64,000 nt of DNA from a virus. The notes beneath the pieces were generated by a model that was not told where the DNA came from, did no database searches, and worked only from the letters and a program-made list of their open reading frames with translations. The translations under genes and the position numbers were made by a program. The stretch's first letter is position 1, and the number at the start of each line of letters is the position of its first letter. Where the stretch lies: IMG/VR virus record IMGVR_UViG_3300005681_000033, positions 64,001 to 128,000 of that record; one strand, 5' to 3'. Shown piece after piece: positions 1 through 64,000 of the stretch.

Positions 1-786
1 TTTGTTTGCAGGTGCAGAATCATCAGGACTATTTAAAGCTTCTTCGTTGTCGTCGGACACATCATCCTCATTTCCAATTGGAGCTTCATCAGAATCATCA
101 GAATCTGAATCAGCATCTTGTGCGTTAGGGTCAGCTGCTGGTGGTGTAGCAGGTGCAGGTTTATTCATAGCTTTGTTTTTTGGCATAGCTTTGTTATCTT
201 GAATATTTGTATTTGCTTCAGCCTCTGCACCTTCTTCAGCAGGAGCTTTTGGAACAATACTGTCTTCCTCAGCACCTTCTTCTGGTGCTACTTCTTCAGC
301 TTGTGATTCGTTATCTTCCATAGCTTGATCTTCTAGATCACCTTCAGCTGGAATTTCTGGAGCTTGGTCAATATCTTGTGATGGATCTTCATCACTAGAT
401 TCGTCTGAAAGATAATCTTCCATATTAGGATCATAGTGAATCGTTTGATTTTTACCATTCATTTTGCCATAGATTAGGGCTTTAGAAGCCTGTGACATAG
501 AAGCGCCCACACCAACAGTTAAACCATGACCAGACGATTCTTGATAATCTTGTCTGATGGAATCCATTTGCGCAAGAGCGTCGTCTGGAACTAAATAAAT
601 AGCTTCATCTCCAGAGCCAGTGATTTTTTTACCACCAATTCCCTCTGCCCATTCATCGATCTTTTTGTGTGCTTGATCAATAGTAGAACTTGCGTTCGCT
701 AAATCCTGGTGATCATCATTGGCAATTGCGTTACCAATTCTAGTACCAACATCATCTCCGTTCACCGCCAAGTAGACATTACCCAT
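1..786 (-). CDS. mCpol (minimal CRISPR polymerase / GGDEF-Cas10 palm-like) domain protein with acidic low-complexity tail; runs off the window edge
   Basis: Not in the ORF track. Translated by hand from ATG 786 after RBS TAAGGAG: MGNVYLAVNGDDVGTRIGNAIANDD...GGKKITGSGDEAIYLV...LTVGVGASMSQASKALIYGKMNGKN, then D/E/P/A-rich and open to position 1. Confidence 0.7.
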   Translation of the reverse strand, partial: MGNVYLAVNGDDVGTRIGNAIANDDHQDLANASSTIDQAHKKIDEWAEGIGGKKITGSGDEAIYLVPDDALAQMDSIRQDYQESSGHGLTVGVGASMSQASKALIYGKMNGKNQTIHYDPNMEDYLSDESSDEDPSQDIDQAPEIPAEGDLEDQAMEDNESQAEEVAPEEGAEEDSIVPKAPAEEGAEAEANTNIQDNKAMPKNKAMNKPAPATPPAADPNAQDADSDSDDSDEAPIGNEDDVSDDNEEALNSPDDSAPANK

Positions 787-1324
787 TTTGCAACTCCTTA
801 ATTTTATTACTTTTCTTTAAATTTTCTGAAGCTGGCAAATACTGCAAATTCCAAGGAACATGCAATCCACAAACATCTGGATGATTTAAAGGAATGATAT
901 GATCGACATGAAATCCTTTTGGACAATTGTTGTAAATATCTTTAATTTCATTCATTACATTTGTAAAAGTAGCTTTTTGAACTTTAGCTCTTCTAATACT
1001 TGCTTTATAAGCAATTTTACTTTTGTTATTTGAAGCCCATTGTTTTTCTCTAGCTCTATACTTTTCTTTATTTGCTAAATAATAGTTTTTACGATACTCA
1101 AGTATTTCTGGCTTGATTGCAATCAATCTTGAATATTCTTTCATTTTTGAAATACCATAGTCACTTGATCTATATTTTTTATCTGCTTTGGATTGCCAAG
1201 ATTTTACCTTATCTTTATTCCTTGCTCTATATTGTTTTTGATAAGTATAATGACAAGTTTTACACCATCTCTGTGTAAACTCTGTTAGATTTTTCTCTAC
1301 TTTGCATTTCGTACATTTTTTCAT
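779..1324 (-). CDS. HNH homing endonuclease
   Basis: N-terminal CxxC pairs; HVDHIIPL...CGLHVPWNLQYL...N. Confidence 0.9.
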   Translation of the reverse strand: MKKCTKCKVEKNLTEFTQRWCKTCHYTYQKQYRARNKDKVKSWQSKADKKYRSSDYGISKMKEYSRLIAIKPEILEYRKNYYLANKEKYRAREKQWASNNKSKIAYKASIRRAKVQKATFTNVMNEIKDIYNNCPKGFHVDHIIPLNHPDVCGLHVPWNLQYLPASENLKKSNKIKELQNG

Positions 1325-2214
1325 TTTTTAGCTCTCAAAGCCTCTAAAAGCATTTCTACATTTTCAATATCAAAATTTTTAGGAAATTTGATTTTTACGG
1401 TACCATCTACATTTTTCATAATTTTGATAGACTTGGCCATAAATTCACCGTAGCAAATACACGGAATAATTTCTTCTGATTCTTTTTTATGAATTGTGGT
1501 TTTACAATCTGGACATTTAACATCTTCACTCTTGTCCATTTCTACAGACTCTTGACGCTTTTTTTCTAAATTGTCAAGGAATTGTCGCAACTTACTCTTT
1601 TTATTATCTTCCATTGGCGTTTCTTCCTTTGGTTCAGGCTTTTCTTGTACAGATTCAAAATGACTATGTAATCTTGCCTGAATCATCTTTTGAATAGCCT
1701 CTCGTTCAGAGATACGCTTATCAACCACATCCTTAATCATGTTGTGCATCATTAAACGTTGATCGATCAGGTCTTGTAGTTTATCGATTTTTTGTTGTTC
1801 TGGTTCAGAAGGTTCTTTTTTAAGATCTTCGATTTTATCTAAATCATAAAGCTCAAATACACTTAATAAAATTAAGCCAATTGAAGGAAGAGATCTATGA
1901 TAGAATTCATATTTGACCTTACCTTCTTGTGTAATATTACCACTGTAGTTGTCAGCACCAAGTTTGTTAACATGAAGTTTTGCACCAAGTGCCCATGGAA
2001 TATCTAAGTCAGCAATGTCATTAGCCGATAAATGCTTAAGATTAAAGAATAGAAACGACAAAACTGCTCGTGGAACAATCTCCAGAGCTACTCTGATTTC
2101 TTCGGGTTGTAGAGCCGTCTTAGTTTCTGGTTTATAAATCGCTGATTTTTTCAATTCATCGAATATATCTTTACCTAGAATACTTTTGACGATTTTGACG
2201 TCTTTAAGTTTCAT
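1321..2214 (-). CDS. Hypothetical protein with Cys-rich C-terminus; candidate internal head protein
   Basis: CPDC...CIC; IVKS, LKKS, MDKS, MAKS motifs; in the late operon. Confidence 0.45.
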   Translation of the reverse strand: MKLKDVKIVKSILGKDIFDELKKSAIYKPETKTALQPEEIRVALEIVPRAVLSFLFFNLKHLSANDIADLDIPWALGAKLHVNKLGADNYSGNITQEGKVKYEFYHRSLPSIGLILLSVFELYDLDKIEDLKKEPSEPEQQKIDKLQDLIDQRLMMHNMIKDVVDKRISEREAIQKMIQARLHSHFESVQEKPEPKEETPMEDNKKSKLRQFLDNLEKKRQESVEMDKSEDVKCPDCKTTIHKKESEEIIPCICYGEFMAKSIKIMKNVDGTVKIKFPKNFDIENVEMLLEALRAKK

Positions 2215-2687: not shown

Positions 2688-2725
2688 ATCTCCTAATTAT
2701 ACCTTAAAGATTGTCATTTAGATGG

Positions 2726-4137: not shown

Positions 4138-4200
4138 TTTTTACCTCTGTATTACTTATCTATATAAAAGATTGTGATTATTGATGAAAATAACAGATAA

Positions 4201-4845
4201 CTAATTGATTTTATTGCTTTTCTTTAAATTATCAACCATCCAAAGAGGTTGTAAATTCGTATAATGACACGCCTTAATGATTTCTTCTCTGTCCGTTAGA
4301 TTAAAACTTGACAATGGCTTGATGTGATCGATATGCCAACCAAATTTACCGTAGTTATTCCAAGACATATTTTTCTCAAATTTTGTTTCTATGTATTTTT
4401 TAAAAAAATCTAGAGTACAACCTAGATCTTTTATAGCAGAACCAGGTTTATTTCTATTGATTGCGTTATTTAGCCTAGTTCTTAGATTACAAGCAATGCG
4501 AAATTGTAAATCTTCTTTTTTTCTCTTTTTGTGATTAGTAACGCTTTTTTTAATTAAAATATTTCTATTAGCTTCGTAATATGCCTTGCTTTTTGCTTTA
4601 ATTTTATCTGGATTTTTCAGGCTATAGTTTTTATAAATAGTTTTCATTTTTTCTACATTGTTTTTTCTATAAAAACCATTTTTAGCCAATTCTTTTGTTT
4701 TGTTTTTGTTGTAATACACTTGTCTGTATTGTTTTTGACAAATTTTACAAATATCTCGAAAACCTGTTTTTGAAGAACAATGTTTGTTAAACTCAGTTAT
4801 TTCTTTAATATTTTGGCATTTTTTGCAAAAATGTGTTGTGTTCAT
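4201..4845 (-). CDS. HNH homing endonuclease
   Basis: CxxC pairs; WHIDHIKPLSSF...CHYTNLQPLW..DN. Confidence 0.88.
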   Translation of the reverse strand: MNTTHFCKKCQNIKEITEFNKHCSSKTGFRDICKICQKQYRQVYYNKNKTKELAKNGFYRKNNVEKMKTIYKNYSLKNPDKIKAKSKAYYEANRNILIKKSVTNHKKRKKEDLQFRIACNLRTRLNNAINRNKPGSAIKDLGCTLDFFKKYIETKFEKNMSWNNYGKFGWHIDHIKPLSSFNLTDREEIIKACHYTNLQPLWMVDNLKKSNKIN

Positions 4846-12212: not shown

Positions 12213-14333
12213 CTACTTCTTTTTTTCGTTTTTGTAAAGAAATTCAGATTTGGCAATTTTCATTTTTGGCTGTGCCTGTGGCATTTCTGGTTGAGCAGGC
12301 ATTGGAGCTGGTTGATTTTGAGCTACCGGTTGTTGTGTAGGCATTGGAGCTGGACGCGGTTTCATTCGCACTACATTTGGAGGCAATTCTTGCTGCATTT
12401 GTGGTTGAACGGCTTGTTTTTTAGCTTGTCTATCCAACACAGCACCTGGCTGCCTATTTGTAATAGCAGCGTCTAAGGTTCTGTCTGCCTTAGACCATCC
12501 TTTATCTGGGTGAAATTTCATTTGACCACTAAAAATAGCATGTAATCGTGCTTTGTTTTCAGGAGAAAGGTTTCTCGCTTGACGAATTAAATCGACATAC
12601 TTTTCCTTTTTGCCTGGAACCTTAACACGAGTGGCAATCACCTTATTTGGATCTTCAACGGAAGTTCTCTGAGGTGCATTTTTATCCTTTACTGGAATTG
12701 ACACCTGACTTGCTGGCATCCCAAGAAAACGACGAATCAACTGCTCTGCAGCCATTGGTTGCACTTCACCTTGAGATCGTTTTTGTTGCATATATCCATA
12801 TTGCTTTTGAACATCCGAATATTGCTTATCCATTAAACGCTGTCCATCTTCAAGACTAACACCTTCAGGCATTAACATTAAATGTGCAATTTCATGAACA
12901 ATTGCTTCAGGATTCCATTGAGCTTCGAATTTACCTGAACGCCAATCTGGTTTATCCACACCAATTTCATTGTCTGCTTTTCTACGCTCACCTGTCTTGT
13001 CGTTTACCTTACCACCTGATGGTTGCAAATCAAGACCTAAAAACTTATCAACGAATTTTTTGATATGATTGATGTGCTTATCACGCATTGCAGATTTCGC
13101 TGCAGGTTGAGAATTGGTTCCAAATACCTTTTTACGTTGTTCGCGTACATTTTTAGAGGCTTTGTTAATATCTGAGTGTCCAAGCTTACGAACAATAACA
13201 AATTCAGATTTAACAACATCGACTTCAGACTTAGGAAGGTTTGGTTTTGGCATATCTTTCAATTCTTTCAATTTTCTAGAATGCATTTGACGTGCAACTT
13301 GTTTTTGTCTTTCTTTTCCACCAGATTTAATAGGTGTTTTTTTATTACTTCCTGCGATAGCCATGACACCAGCTCTACTATGAGTTCCAGTCCCAACATC
13401 CGACGTATGAACTCCCTTTAAATCTTTTGCCAATGCGTCACCCTGTACTTTTTCAGATGAAACTCCAGCACCACAAGACGCAACAAGAGCTTTACGAACA
13501 TTTGAATCGTATTTACTAAGCTGTTTTTTCTCGTTCTTTTGCCATGCTGGTTTCATTTTTGGCATTTTACCGTAAATTTGAGTGCCAGTTTTGGCTTTTG
13601 GTTCAGCTGCATAATTGATTTTATCACCAACGTGCATAGTGCTCGGAGCATTTTTTGGACTGAAGATGCGTTTAGGGATACGACCACTTCCAGGAGGAGA
13701 ATTCAAATCTGCTTTGTAAATGAAAGGAATCTCACCTTTCATGATTTGACACGAAGCTTCGTCTGCTTTAGACATAACATCTTGAATAAATGCAAATTTA
13801 CCAGAATCTGACTGTTTTTGGGCTTTGTCGTCTACTTTCAATTCGTAAGCTTCACAAACTTTATTGCAAGGAGTCAAAGTAACAGATACTTTTCTTGCAA
13901 TACATTTTGTAATAATAGCACCTTGTTTTTCAACACGAGAGCCTTCGATAGAAAAATTGATTAGTTTTTTGGCTTCTTTGTTAAGAGGTGTCATTTGGTC
14001 GTACTTGAGCATTGCAGCTACTTCACTAGCAGCTTTGTGACCAACCGAATCAAATAATTCACCAGCAACATAAATAAAAGGCATTTTAAGCTTATCCCAA
14101 AATTCCTTTTGATGTTCATTTTCGCAATCAGAGCGTTTTAAGATTTTCTTGGCTTCCCAAATCTTACCTACAATAGAAGAAGGGCTTTTAGAGTCATGTT
14201 CGTAGTTAAAAGTTCCATCTTTTGTAAGACTTGTAATATCTACGCCTTCAATTTGAATACGTTCGCCAGAACTATCTAAGTGTTCTGAGGCAGCGATGCC
14301 ATGAATGAAAGTTCCACGTTTTTGATCAGACAT
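12213..14333 (-). CDS. Prohead (capsid maturation) protease with long C-terminal extension containing an HExxH domain
   Basis: GIAASEHLDSSGE..NYEH..IVGKI..GELF..FSIEG..VTLTPCN; HEIAH at 12882-12896. Confidence 0.8.
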   Translation of the reverse strand: MSDQKRGTFIHGIAASEHLDSSGERIQIEGVDITSLTKDGTFNYEHDSKSPSSIVGKIWEAKKILKRSDCENEHQKEFWDKLKMPFIYVAGELFDSVGHKAASEVAAMLKYDQMTPLNKEAKKLINFSIEGSRVEKQGAIITKCIARKVSVTLTPCNKVCEAYELKVDDKAQKQSDSGKFAFIQDVMSKADEASCQIMKGEIPFIYKADLNSPPGSGRIPKRIFSPKNAPSTMHVGDKINYAAEPKAKTGTQIYGKMPKMKPAWQKNEKKQLSKYDSNVRKALVASCGAGVSSEKVQGDALAKDLKGVHTSDVGTGTHSRAGVMAIAGSNKKTPIKSGGKERQKQVARQMHSRKLKELKDMPKPNLPKSEVDVVKSEFVIVRKLGHSDINKASKNVREQRKKVFGTNSQPAAKSAMRDKHINHIKKFVDKFLGLDLQPSGGKVNDKTGERRKADNEIGVDKPDWRSGKFEAQWNPEAIVHEIAHLMLMPEGVSLEDGQRLMDKQYSDVQKQYGYMQQKRSQGEVQPMAAEQLIRRFLGMPASQVSIPVKDKNAPQRTSVEDPNKVIATRVKVPGKKEKYVDLIRQARNLSPENKARLHAIFSGQMKFHPDKGWSKADRTLDAAITNRQPGAVLDRQAKKQAVQPQMQQELPPNVVRMKPRPAPMPTQQPVAQNQPAPMPAQPEMPQAQPKMKIAKSEFLYKNEKKK

Positions 14334-19865: not shown

Positions 19866-21623
19866 ATGAAAAAAGTTAAAACACCTGCTAAAATGTTTAA
19901 CAGCAATTTAGTCGAGTTAGAAAATATCGTAGTGAGAACTATCGATAAAATTGACCGCATTGTAGGCTCTTCACTGGGTCCAGGTGGACGCAATGTGATT
20001 ATTGAGTCCGAATTACCCGGCATTCCGAATAAGAACACTAAGGACGGAGTGACGATCTTTAAATCATTAGGGTCAAATGACGCATATGAACATCTCATTA
20101 TCGAACAGACTCGTGATGTGGCTATTCGAACGGTAAACGAAGCTGGTGATGGAACTACCACAGCCACAGTTGTAGCCTCAGCTTTTATTAAGAATCTTTT
20201 TCGTTATTGCGCAGAAAATAGAAAAAACAGCCCTCAAAAAGTTACACGTGAAATCCAAAAGATTGTTGAGGGTAAGCTAATCCCACAAATTCGAGAATCT
20301 GCAATTAAAGTAACTCCTAAAAACCAAGATCTATTAGAAAAAGTAGCCACTGTATCTGCAAACGGCGATAAGGAAATGGCCAAGGCTGTGATGGAAGCCT
20401 TTGAAAAGGTTGGCTTTGGAAGTAATTCACATGTTACTATTCAAGAGCTTTCTGGCCCTTCTGGATATGAAACAGAATTGATTCGTGGCTTTCCTATCGA
20501 AAAAGGATATGAAGAATCAATTGGTAAATTTCATGCTAGTTTTATTAACGACCAGGGACACCAAAGATGCGTTCTTGACAATCCTCTATTTATTTTATTT
20601 GATGGAAATATCAATGATTTAGTACAGGTACATGAAATTTTAACACATATTGGTCAAGAATATGTATCTGGAAATGCTGATTTTAAAAACGTAGTCGTTG
20701 TTGCTCATAAATTCCAAGATCAAGTTTTAACCAACTGGGCATGGAATTTTAGTAATCCCAACACCATTAATGTTGTTCCTCTGCAAACACCTATGGTACC
20801 TATGGTTAACGGTCAAATGCAATTCTTAATGGATCTATCAGCGTTCACGGGCGCAAAAATTTTTGATATGAACAATCCTTTGATCGAGGCTACTCCTGAC
20901 GATCTTGGTAAAAACATGAGTAAGATCGAAATTAGTCGTTTTCGCACTACTATTGTTGGAGAATCAGACGCTACAAATGTAGAAGTGAGAGCTGAAGAAA
21001 TTCAAACAATGATTAAAAATGCAGCCTCTAAACTTGAAAAGAATATTTTAGAAGAGCGTCTTGGTAAATTAACCAGTGGCATTGCACAGTTAAAGATTTA
21101 TGGTGCCTCTAATGGTGAATTAAAAGAGAAATCAGATCGAGCAGAAGATGCTGTTTGTGCAGTTCGAGCTGCCATTAACCATGGTTGTTTACCTGGTGGA
21201 TGTCGAACACTGATTAATTTAGCAATGAGTTTGTCAGAAGAAACAGACCCTATGGTTCATTCTGTCATCATCCCTTCTTTATTTGCACCGTTTCATAGAT
21301 TACTTGAAAATGCTGGATATAGTCCTGAAGAGATCGAGAAGCTTATTGTTAAAATGATCGAAAAGCCAAATCATGTTTATGATGTTGAAAATGCTACTTT
21401 TGGAGATTTCAAAAAAATGGGAGTGTATGATGCTGCCATGGCCGTTGAACAGGCTCTAAAAAATGCAGTTTCTATTTCATCGGTTATGGGAACTCTAGGT
21501 GGTATTGTTGCTTTCCCTAGAGACAATCAATTAGAAAATCAAGAACATAAAGAAGCTATGAATTTCCAAAGAACTATTGACAATGCACAGTCTTTGGCAA
21601 ACGAAGCAAATGAGAGGCCATAA
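19866..21623 (+). CDS. groEL: Phage-encoded GroEL-like chaperonin
   Basis: SLGPGGRNV, TKDGVT, AGDGTTTATV, ERLGKLTSGIA, PGG. Confidence 0.95.
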   Translation: MKKVKTPAKMFNSNLVELENIVVRTIDKIDRIVGSSLGPGGRNVIIESELPGIPNKNTKDGVTIFKSLGSNDAYEHLIIEQTRDVAIRTVNEAGDGTTTATVVASAFIKNLFRYCAENRKNSPQKVTREIQKIVEGKLIPQIRESAIKVTPKNQDLLEKVATVSANGDKEMAKAVMEAFEKVGFGSNSHVTIQELSGPSGYETELIRGFPIEKGYEESIGKFHASFINDQGHQRCVLDNPLFILFDGNINDLVQVHEILTHIGQEYVSGNADFKNVVVVAHKFQDQVLTNWAWNFSNPNTINVVPLQTPMVPMVNGQMQFLMDLSAFTGAKIFDMNNPLIEATPDDLGKNMSKIEISRFRTTIVGESDATNVEVRAEEIQTMIKNAASKLEKNILEERLGKLTSGIAQLKIYGASNGELKEKSDRAEDAVCAVRAAINHGCLPGGCRTLINLAMSLSEETDPMVHSVIIPSLFAPFHRLLENAGYSPEEIEKLIVKMIEKPNHVYDVENATFGDFKKMGVYDAAMAVEQALKNAVSISSVMGTLGGIVAFPRDNQLENQEHKEAMNFQRTIDNAQSLANEANERP

Positions 21624-61671: not shown

Positions 61672-62493
61672 ATGAAAAAAGGTGATTCTCTTGGCGACCG
61701 CATGAAAGAACAGTACGAAAACCGTACTCGTTACAATCTACCGCGTCGAACATATACAATTATTAGAGTTGACGGTAAGGCATTTCATACTTTCACGAAA
61801 GGTTTTGACAAGCCATTTGATAAAGATCTTATGGACGTCATGGATTTGGTTGCAAAGACACTTTGTGAAGAAATCCAAGGTGCAAGAATGGCTTATGTCC
61901 AGTCAGATGAAATCTCGATTTTATTAACCGACTTTGAAACCCCACAGACGGAAGCTTGGTTCAATGGAAATCTTCAAAAAATGGTGTCTATCTCTGCAGC
62001 CATTGCAACGGCTAAATTCAATGACTGTATTGTTGATGAAGTAATGTTTAAAAAGAATGCTAAGTTTCACAAGCCAGATCTTGCCTTGTTTGACTCTCGT
62101 GTTTTCACTATTTCTGACCCTATCGAAGTGGAAAATTATTTTATTTGGCGTCAACAAGACGCTACTAGAAACAGCATCCAGATGGCAGCAAGGGCTTTGT
62201 ACAGCCATAAACAATGTGACAACAAAAACACTTCCGAACTACAAGAAATGTGTTTTCAAAAAGGTGTTAATTGGAATGATTACTCAGCTCGTGAAAAACG
62301 CGGTGGATGGGTAATTAAAAAATCAACTGGTGTTGTGGTCGATACAGACCCACCAATTAAAGTTAGGGGATGGTTAGTGGAAGGATCACCCTTATTTACA
62401 GCAGAACGTAAACTTTTGAGGGCTCAAATCCCTCGAATTCTCACAGAGGAAGTGGAAAATGGCAAATCAGAAGACGAAAAAACCGAATTTTAA
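61672..62493 (+). CDS. tRNA(His) guanylyltransferase Thg1-like protein
   Basis: RVDGKAFHTFT, YVQSDEIS, FDSR, WRQQDA.RNS. Confidence 0.93.
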   Translation: MKKGDSLGDRMKEQYENRTRYNLPRRTYTIIRVDGKAFHTFTKGFDKPFDKDLMDVMDLVAKTLCEEIQGARMAYVQSDEISILLTDFETPQTEAWFNGNLQKMVSISAAIATAKFNDCIVDEVMFKKNAKFHKPDLALFDSRVFTISDPIEVENYFIWRQQDATRNSIQMAARALYSHKQCDNKNTSELQEMCFQKGVNWNDYSAREKRGGWVIKKSTGVVVDTDPPIKVRGWLVEGSPLFTAERKLLRAQIPRILTEEVENGKSEDEKTEF

Positions 62494-63361
62494 GGATGAT
62501 TTTGAACTCCTTTATCTAAGACATGAATACATGGATACCATCAACAAGGCTTCTAAGAAATTAGACCCCAGTATGGTTGCCAAATATGCTGGAATTGTAA
62601 ACACAACAGCTAAAATTATGTATTCGAAGTTCAAACACAACTTTGTACAAGTTGGTTTTGATGTCTATGACGTAATTGCAGTCACAAATCTATACATGCT
62701 TTATTACATGAGCTTATATAGCATGAAAAATAATCCAGAATTCATGGAAAGAATGCTTAGCAAACGAACCAAGGCTACCCCGGAAAGTGAAGTGGAGAGA
62801 ATTGAGAGAAATCATTTAATTAGCTTCCTTAGACAGAGATTGCAACAATTTTCTGTTGTTTGTAGTCGTAAGGCTCGAAATATCACCGTTGATAGCGAAA
62901 AACGTGCCTTTTTTGCAGCCACTGAAAATAGTCGCGATGTTGCCAAAGAGCTTGTATTTGAAAATCCTAAGAAGTATGACTATAGACGCCTAACCACCAA
63001 AGAATTCAAGGAAGCTAGGTTGCGTGCTCGTATGGCTCAAACTACGGAGTTAACTGACCAATATGGTTTTAAAATTATTAAAATGGAAAAAGCCAACCTT
63101 GGAATCAGCGAATATGACTATCAACTTTTAACTGAGGAAAACCAGGGTGAGTTTTATCTAACTCCTGAAAAAAGCCTGGAAAAACAAGAAGATGATGATC
63201 GATTTGAAAACATCAAATTTCAATTTAACAGTTTAAATCAGGATGAAAAGAGACAAGTTCTTTTAAATTTTATCCAAGACGCAGAAAGAGACAAGCATTT
63301 AAAGTCTGAAATTAAGCTTGCAAAACAGATTTTGGAACAAGATTGTGGTATTATGCTATAG
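62459..63361 (+). CDS. Possible divergent sigma-like transcription factor
   Basis: YAGIVNTTAK...GFDVYDV loosely resembles sigma region 2; SLNQDEKRQVL near the C-terminus. Confidence 0.35.
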   Translation: MANQKTKKPNFKDDFELLYLRHEYMDTINKASKKLDPSMVAKYAGIVNTTAKIMYSKFKHNFVQVGFDVYDVIAVTNLYMLYYMSLYSMKNNPEFMERMLSKRTKATPESEVERIERNHLISFLRQRLQQFSVVCSRKARNITVDSEKRAFFAATENSRDVAKELVFENPKKYDYRRLTTKEFKEARLRARMAQTTELTDQYGFKIIKMEKANLGISEYDYQLLTEENQGEFYLTPEKSLEKQEDDDRFENIKFQFNSLNQDEKRQVLLNFIQDAERDKHLKSEIKLAKQILEQDCGIML

Positions 63362-63844
63362 ATGGACTACACTTCAATTCTTCAACAATTTAAGAAAGAC
63401 AGGGTAAGGGCTGGAGAACACATGACCCTCAGTCTATTGCCGTTTTTATTTCTTGAATTGGAGAAAGTCGGATTTACCCAGGAAAGTTTAAATACAGATT
63501 TTTACAAAAATGCTATTTCTATACTTTTTGAAGGCGAATCGGCAAGTGTACATTCGTATGTGTTGGAAGATATGTTTGCGTATGCAGAAAGACTTCCGAT
63601 TAAAAAACAAGAAATCGAACAGAAAAAAGAAGAACCCAGGAAACAGCAACCAACAGCAACATTTACAGGGCAAATTATTACTACAGAACATTTAGTGAAT
63701 AATATTCCAGACGAATCCGAAGAGGACGATGGTCTTTCTACTCCCATTGAAGATGTTATTAATTTAAACCCTGAAGATTTTGCTGATTACGAAATGGATT
63801 GGGATTTTGCTGAATCTGTAGGACTGCAAAGGCCGAAAAAATGA
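63362..63844 (+). CDS. Hypothetical protein with acidic tail
   Basis: ATG 7 nt after TGTGG-TATTAT. Confidence 0.6.
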   Translation: MDYTSILQQFKKDRVRAGEHMTLSLLPFLFLELEKVGFTQESLNTDFYKNAISILFEGESASVHSYVLEDMFAYAERLPIKKQEIEQKKEEPRKQQPTATFTGQIITTEHLVNNIPDESEEDDGLSTPIEDVINLNPEDFADYEMDWDFAESVGLQRPKK

Positions 63845-64000
63845 GTAAACAGGACGTTTCACAGATCTTAGGACCTGAGGTAATCGCAGACCTCAATAAA
63901 AAGAAGTCAGAACTTGAAAAAGCTCGTATTGAAACGCAACACGAACAGCTTCAAGAGCAACGTAGAGAATTGGAAATGCTTTCGTCATTTGACTTAAGCA
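63841..64000 (+). CDS. Partial CDS running off the window
   Basis: ATGA overlap; MSKQDVSQILGPEV... open to the end. Confidence 0.6.
   Translation, partial: MSKQDVSQILGPEVIADLNKKKSELEKARIETQHEQLQEQRRELEMLSSFDLS

Follow-up and report, generated by a model that had tools for sequence, protein, structure and literature searches.

A phage mCpol-family domain heads a conserved protein encoded among virion genes

Introduction

To our knowledge, mCpol enzymes are known only as bacterial guards, in which a constant signal holds a suicide effector in check. The mCpol enzyme of the Panoptes defence system, OptS, uses Asp6 and Asp57 to hold the Mg ions that bind the triphosphate, while its Ser30 and Asn34 face the adenine; the published 'dead' control is a mutant of the hairpin Asp, which is residue Asp58 in the Vibrio protein (PMC12657218). 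GGDEF cyclase domains have been noted in phage polyvalent proteins for which packaging is predicted, and were proposed to interfere with host nucleotide signalling (Iyer et al. 2017, PMC5512222). The Panoptes and mCpol literature that we examined makes no mention of a phage-encoded mCpol, and we found no published description of the protein presented here.

A first-pass annotation of a stretch of viral DNA had proposed an mCpol-like domain on a gene running off its first base. Here we follow up this proposal and find that the domain belongs to the mCpol family, heads a protein encoded among virion genes, and has hundreds of relatives of the same architecture.

Results

The window, by which we mean the whole stretch of DNA that was analysed, is 64,000 nucleotides long and corresponds to bases 64001-128000 of a viral record of 166,783 bp with 37.6% G+C. 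The minus-strand ORF noticed in the first pass, starting at position 786 behind a good ribosome-binding site, is indeed the front of a gene, which in the full record has 479 codons (genome 63347-64786; L001:847-2286:-), and the rest of which was recovered from the bases preceding the window. The parts of the gene are as follows.

Window 794-799, minus strand: ribosome-binding site AAGGAG of the mCpol gene, 7 nt 5′ of the ATG, as read from the sequence
Window 1-786, minus strand: first 262 codons of the mCpol gene, with the ATG at 786-784, running off the window start
Window 433-786, minus strand: mCpol palm domain, residues 1-118 (Pfam PF18182, OptS alignment, predicted fold)
Window 1-423, minus strand: first part of the acidic disordered spacer, which as a whole comprises residues 121-372
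Genome 63347-64000, minus strand: remaining part of the mCpol gene, before the window start

The first ~118 residues had been said to follow the mCpol palm pattern, and this holds by profile search, by comparison with the sequences of solved structures and by predicted fold. Residues 5-117 cover positions 1-113 of the 114 positions of the Pfam mCpol profile (PF18182), with 40.2 bits for the part of the protein encoded in the window, 43 bits for the domain alone and 42.2 bits in a scan of the genome, where it was the single mCpol match; the cutoff of the family is 26.4 bits. When the protein was compared with PDB sequences by phmmer, only Panoptes OptS/mCpol chains matched (9mnr, E 2.6e-7; 9nwn, E 2e-6). 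The AlphaFold2 model, built on 26 relatives, has a pLDDT of 89-95 over residues 1-120, and its top fold matches in the PDB were OptS chains (TM 0.85-0.88, rmsd 1.6-1.8 Å, 27% identity); 9mnr_A superimposed with TM 0.88 and rmsd 1.7 Å over 116 columns, with GGDEF and Cas10 structures far behind. A combined language-model and structure look-up of the domain returned mCpol clusters, and the degenerate GGDEF of GdpP-type proteins was among the look-alikes. PHROGs gave no match for either the whole protein or the mCpol domain.

The alignment with OptS is free of gaps over both catalytic positions, and pairs Asn9 with OptS Asp6 and Asp60 with OptS Asp57. Asn9-Gly-Asp11 lies on strand 1 and Ser58-Gly-Asp60-Glu61 in the hairpin, which bears out the earlier reading that the first Asp of the usual DGD had become Asn and that GGD had become SGD. 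The minimal palm fold is thus present, together with the hairpin acidic residue (Asp60) and the base-contacting Ser (Ser33 for OptS Ser30), while the first metal-binding Asp is absent. We conclude that both the HMM and the fold place the domain in the mCpol family, but that it lacks one defining catalytic feature. The hairpin Asp that was mutated in the published 'dead' control is kept in the phage protein.

A search with the domain alone against 1.8 billion representative sequences (50% identity) gave 709 matches at E≤1e-3, including 481 at E≤1e-10. Of the 150 top-ranking matches, almost all are proteins of 350-960 aa, and each of ten long relatives that were scanned matched mCpol (40-68 bits). 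An above-cutoff family match, a confident fold, hundreds of homologues of the same architecture and strict synteny (see below) refute the idea that the ORF is a chance ORF or a mis-called frame, for which the low-complexity look of the tail is the sole argument and which we consider to have next to no probability.

In 171 aligned matched proteins, ranked by similarity to a motif-bearing query and covering only the best 150 of the 709 domain matches, so that the counts (including the 169/171 below) overstate conservation, Asp11 is present in 171/171, Asp60 in 169/171, Gly59 in 165/171, Lys108 in 168/171, and Lys102 and Lys112 in 162/171 each. Position 9 splits the relatives, with Asn in 90 and Asp in 80, and covaries perfectly with position 58: Asn9 occurs with Ser or Ala58, and Asp9 with Gly58. 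There are, therefore, two active-site variants, Asp...GGDE and Asn...SGDE, the latter defining the clade that includes this phage. The column of OptS Ser30 holds Ser in 79 of the 80 Asp-type proteins and Ser or Thr in 84 of the 90 of the Asn type (Ser/Thr in 163/170 overall). In a tree built with columns 9 and 58 masked, 89 of the 90 Asn-type proteins fell into one clade (support 0.89), with 3 changes. This tree makes Asn9 an old, single and fixed change, accompanied by a paired second change, rather than a sign of decay. Moreover, the near-invariance of Asn9, Asp11, Gly59-Asp60-Glu61, Ser/Thr33 and the three lysines within such a deep clade points to a nucleotide site that is functional. Catalysis in the Asn clade may be altered or slowed and not lost, or, alternatively, Asn at the position of OptS Asp6 may abolish synthesis in the clade of this phage. 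The consensus of the Asp-type alignment A2 contains, after the mCpol domain, three Cys-x-x-Cys pairs, possibly a zinc-binding insert, which is absent from this phage's clade.

The domain is followed by what had been described as a long acidic disordered tail, correctly so: residues 121-372 contain 37% Asp plus Glu and carry a net charge of -85 (that of the whole protein is -105), and the AlphaFold2 pLDDT is below 50 over most of residues 141-372. Among relatives the length and sequence of this spacer vary and its composition is kept. Two islands within it (residues 268-281 and 340-356; genome about 63719-63985), with the sequences Ile-Asp-Gly-Lys-Thr...Asp-Phe-Gly and Asp-Pro-Leu-Ala-x-Met-Ile-His-x-Asp-Met, are conserved in 26 close relatives and are likely to be partner-binding motifs. 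Beyond the spacer, residues 375-448 form four predicted helices (pLDDT about 77-82), and few stretches of the family are as well conserved in sequence. The candidate protease motif K-[S/A/G] (hydrophobic-x-Lys, then Ser, Ala or Gly), which the first-pass annotation had proposed to look for once the whole gene was at hand, occurs three times in the protein, about chance level, as against ten in a 237-aa scaffold candidate of the same phage; none of the three is encoded by the bases preceding the window.

The gene ends with a putative programmed frameshift site. A slippery heptamer, A_AAA_AAG, lies two codons 5′ of the stop (L001 856-850), and a -1 slip on it opens a frame of 109 codons that encodes a basic peptide. 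A heptamer is found 2-10 codons before the stop in 41 of 54 proteins (53 from viral loci plus this one), as A_AAA_AAG in the Asn clade and as C_CCA_AAG or C_CCA_AAA in the Asp clade. The -1 ORFs of relatives are 67-112 codons long, share a motif between both clades, and terminate either right where the next gene starts or no more than about 20 nt away; here the -1 stop overlaps the next start as ATGAGTAA. The same extension domain is fused in frame in two loci, L033 and L039, and in Myxococcus phage Mx1 (match E 0.004). A GC-rich stem of 6 (+2) pairs begins 6 nt 3′ of the heptamer, but the 93-nt fold does not exceed shuffled sequence in stability (z -0.63). The extension had no sequence match in Pfam or the PDB, either alone or as a profile of 34 sequences. 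Taken as it reads, the conserved site probably lets a minority of ribosomes add the basic 109-residue domain by a -1 slip at A_AAA_AAG.

Two scans of viral contigs gave 66 loci, many of them on contigs of 150-177 kb. Gene order is the same in about 60 viral contigs (up to 177 kb): genes for proteins of 177 aa, 292 aa, (156 aa) and 297 aa precede the mCpol gene, and 3′ of it come genes for a 281-aa protein, the tail terminator, small proteins, the sheath and the tube. One or more cargo-like polyproteins precede the 177-aa gene, and in many loci the capsid gene lies just before the block. The order extends to Myxococcus phage Mx1, and in all of the about 60 loci the neighbours of the mCpol gene are virion genes. 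We consider the mCpol gene to be confined to phages and to belong to the core of their late virion operon, where it is placed between candidate head-cargo genes and neck/tail genes. The late/head operon proposed in the first pass thus holds as a late virion operon, though not as a place inside the capsid block. The surroundings of the gene in this phage are as follows.

Window 779-1324, minus strand: HNH endonuclease gene between the 297-aa and mCpol genes, its end overlapping the mCpol start by 8 nt
Window 1321-2214, minus strand: 297-aa gene, identified by synteny, which directly abuts the mCpol gene in most relatives
Window 2705-2714, minus strand: late-promoter-like motif ACAATCTTTA ahead of the 156-aa gene
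Window 4166-4175, minus strand: copy of the motif RCAATCTTWW just upstream of the 177-aa gene
Window 4201-4845, minus strand: second free-standing HNH endonuclease gene, in the virion operon
Genome 62258-63103 (L002:16258-17103), minus strand: 281-aa ORF downstream of the mCpol gene

The 297-aa gene matched neither Pfam nor PHROGs. Most relatives have no gene at the joint between it and the mCpol gene, whereas a homologue of the HNH gene lies just upstream of the mCpol gene in three loci (L037, L038 and L063), in the first two of which it is known to sit between the mCpol and 297-aa genes. These homologues suggest that the HNH gene homes at the conserved 297-aa/mCpol joint. The motif RCAATCTTWW, with 13 copies in the window against 3.8 expected, fits a late promoter, and no terminator-like site was found on the coding strand between the copy at 2705-2714 and the mCpol gene; this copy is likely to mark the start of a transcript that includes the mCpol gene. 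On the other side, the true start of the 281-aa ORF is probably 25 codons later, at genome 63028, in the ATGAGTAA overlap. A wide structural search with the model of the 281-aa protein (pLDDT 88) found the SaPI1 neck chain 9mu2_P with Z 9.9 (next best, 5.8); Foldseek with the same model returned nothing. A 336-aa gene and a 720-aa gene match the tail-terminator and sheath families, respectively. The capsid gene, the 237-aa scaffold candidate (which adjoins the capsid gene and is rich in xxKS motifs) and the prohead protease gene lie 12-17 kb into the window. A GroEL-like chaperonin gene (window 19866-21623, plus strand; PHROG E 1.8e-92) has the capsid block on one side and the large terminase gene on the other.

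Among cultured phages, tblastn found nothing with either the whole protein or an Asp-type relative, megablast of 10 kb found nothing, and the domain search found only Myxococcus phage Mx1 (E 0.01). Mx1 is the nearest cultured phage, its sheath being about 44% identical. Its syntenic orthologue of the mCpol protein, of 468 aa (WNM70340) and annotated as hypothetical, gives only a weak mCpol signal (E 4.6e-4) and no longer has the Gly-Asp-Glu motif of the hairpin or the lysines. Bacterial genomes contained no Asn-type relative, and an Asp-type relative only in one phage-like contig of a metagenome-assembled genome (MAG), a 14-kb contig of a Planctomycetaceae MAG (L071, DBCB01000363.1), with the order polyprotein, 177, 292, 297, mCpol gene, 281. 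This is probably a phage contig binned with the MAG, and as a hint of the host it is weak.

Outright loss of the domain was seen in L033 (9923-11356) and L039 (9932-11365), one on a contig of 170 kb and the other on a 24-kb fragment. Here the syntenic protein lacks the mCpol domain, starts with six Cys-x-Tyr-Cys repeats instead, and keeps the spacer, the helical domain and the in-frame extension. Together with the decay in Mx1, this loss indicates that assembly does not need the mCpol domain. Other relatives have gained modules. In the relative P0117, a module of this phage's own 1314-aa polyprotein (62% identity) stands in front of the mCpol domain, and a linker, KPNLPK-SE, precedes additional modules in 16 of 172 relatives; the possibility that N-terminal extensions of relatives were fusions with the 297-aa neighbour was rejected on comparison. 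The linker is present once in the genome of this phage.

Window 13230-13260, minus strand: linker MPKPNLPK-SE, residues 364-374 of the 706-aa prohead protease, in its tail

In relatives KPNLPK-SE is also found at joints in other genes of the operon, namely in ORFs between the terminator and sheath genes, and it has the look of a cut or joint site that these proteins share. The two marks by which we would recognize a cargo protein, location among virion genes and modules shared with other cargo proteins, are both seen, in the synteny, the P0117 fusion and the KPNLPK-SE linker.

The first-pass annotation had suggested that the protein may supply or bind a signal to defeat Panoptes-type immunity. 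No pairing with the effector gene of a type I or II Panoptes system (2TM-beta or CARF-TM) was seen in any of the about 60 loci, the neighbours being virion genes throughout, and the mCpol gene is not part of a Panoptes system. A search of the genome for Tad2 did not find it. Searches of the genome for the gp49/66 family and for SAVED did not find them either, but these two were run without a positive control and therefore say little.

Discussion

We tentatively favour, at somewhat below an even chance, a reading in which the protein is a conserved, assembly-anchored carrier of a nucleotide-binding and probably nucleotide-synthesising mCpol payload. The ORF in the window would then be the first half of a gene that is expressed late and encodes a protein of three parts. 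The carrier proper would consist of the four-helix C-terminal domain and the basic 109-residue domain added by frameshifting, and would tie the protein to virion assembly, most likely inside the head or at its base; we link it to assembly because it is kept even in relatives without the front domain. The long acidic disordered middle would serve as a flexible tether. The mCpol domain at the front would be an enzyme that is detachable in evolution: under strong selection in most phages, degenerate in Mx1, lost twice, and fused to other cargo modules in some relatives. It would bind ATP and, as an OptS-like oligomer, make a cyclic or short linear oligonucleotide, the synthesis taking place in the infected cell, either at a late stage or once the protein has been delivered along with the DNA. 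In the Asn clade, Asp would have changed to Asn once, with Gly58 changing to Ser or Ala, and both would have been fixed since. Packaging of the protein, its cleavage and its enzyme activity are all presumed on this reading. We prefer a virion-associated carrier because its logic matches that of MuF-type head proteins and of phage polyvalent proteins. Some observations speak against it. A net charge of -105 would be unusual beside DNA, and fits a scaffold or chaperone that leaves the head equally well; and a core gene with a fixed position and a set ratio of frameshifting is what one usually sees for assembly proteins, not for anti-defence enzymes.

The extreme acidity and the frameshift also suit an alternative explanation, in which the protein stays out of the host altogether and works as a chaperone of assembly or in the manner of a scaffold. 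Here mCpol would be a nucleotide-regulated oligomerisation module, the spacer would resemble an acidic scaffold or lambda gpG, and the frameshifted form would bind a second partner in fixed ratio, as in gpG/gpGT. The fixed place of this core gene by the neck and tail genes, the conservation of the -1 frameshift and the strongly acidic, disordered nature of the protein would all suit such a factor, as would the fact that OptS is a tetramer (PMC12657218), so that the fold can oligomerise, and the fact that lineages without the mCpol domain keep the rest of the protein. Pure oligomerisation, however, gives no reason for near-invariant metal, phosphate and base contacts, and the loss of the domain in L033 and L039 and its decay in Mx1 leave it unneeded for assembly. 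The separate 237-aa, xxKS-rich candidate beside the capsid gene also weakens a main scaffold role. A canonical tail chaperone was rejected, the gene being in the wrong position for one; from the genes that follow the tube gene came no family matches of use. On balance we rate an assembly factor of this kind as rather unlikely. Still less likely, in our view, is that the domain of the Asn clade is a pseudo-enzyme, which binds ATP or a cyclic nucleotide, makes nothing, and acts as a sensor or sponge-like binder. It would account for Asn9 in place of an OptS residue that holds Mg, for a change that is old, single, fixed and paired with Gly58→Ser/Ala, and for the retention of the binding residues, and there is a degenerate GdpP-type GGDEF among the look-alikes. 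Yet the carbonyl oxygen of Asn can still bind Mg, Asp60-Glu61 and Asp11 are invariant and not obviously required for pure binding, and mCpol sites take triphosphate substrates across two protomers rather than finished cyclic products. The annotation's alternative of an inactive domain repurposed as a head component splits in two: the near-invariant site argues against inactivity, whereas the carrier does look linked to assembly.

An anti-Panoptes role of the mCpol domain may be possible, though the gene has a fixed place in the operon and is not a variable accessory gene. In the boldest form of this idea, which we judge improbable, the phage would bring in its own mCpol enzyme or make it late, and the product would mimic the 'all is well' nucleotide of Panoptes-type guard systems or block effectors of CBASS or type III systems, so that host signals could be depleted without tripping the guard. 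A virion protein would in that case carry a synthase, encoded by the virus itself, for a decoy signal, and the two active-site variants might make different products.

A large, phage-only mCpol family in a virion operon would mean that viruses, too, use an mCpol enzyme, and whether a phage can feed or fake the guard signal is a question that can be tested at the bench. Asp...GGDE and Asn...SGDE make a natural pair of active-site variants for minimal palm cyclases, and the cultured Myxococcus phage Mx1 provides a natural dead-domain control. More generally, and irrespective of its enzymology, the family illustrates clearly how a morphogenetic carrier and its frameshift can be conserved while the enzyme domain at the head is exchangeable.

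The closest known relatives are the OptS/mCpol proteins of Panoptes from Klebsiella and Vibrio (PDB 9mnr, 9pd0 and 9nwn), which belong to the same Pfam family and have the same fold (TM 0.88, 27% identity). Kept from OptS are the hairpin Asp, the base-contacting Ser and the C-terminal Lys-x-x-Gly-Lys region. OptS, however, is a stand-alone protein of about 120 aa from a two-gene bacterial defence operon with a membrane effector, whereas the phage domain is the head of a 479-aa virion-operon protein with no effector gene nearby and with Asn for Asp6. In its predicted frameshift the gene resembles lambda gpG/gpGT and other phage structural genes with a -1 frameshift, with a slippery heptamer near the end of an acidic protein, a basic domain added, and two forms in fixed ratio. 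Its place, however, is upstream of the neck, terminator and sheath genes, whereas gpG/gpGT lies between the tube and tape-measure genes, and the extension showed no homology to known families, tail chaperones included. MuF and SPP1 gp7 minor head proteins, which carry variable enzyme or toxin domains, follow the same logic of a conserved morphogenetic carrier with an end domain that differs between phages by exchange, loss or degeneration. They are unrelated to it in sequence and fold, however, and in the phage protein the payload is N-terminal and the head location only predicted. As with the GGDEF domains of polyvalent proteins, a palm domain of a nucleotide-synthesising kind is carried by a phage protein encoded among virion genes, and relatives have it fused to polyprotein modules. 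It differs from them in being an mCpol domain with a conserved carrier to itself, which includes an acidic spacer and a putative frameshift; and while the polyvalent GGDEF is a sporadic module, the phage mCpol is a core gene of a whole phage group.
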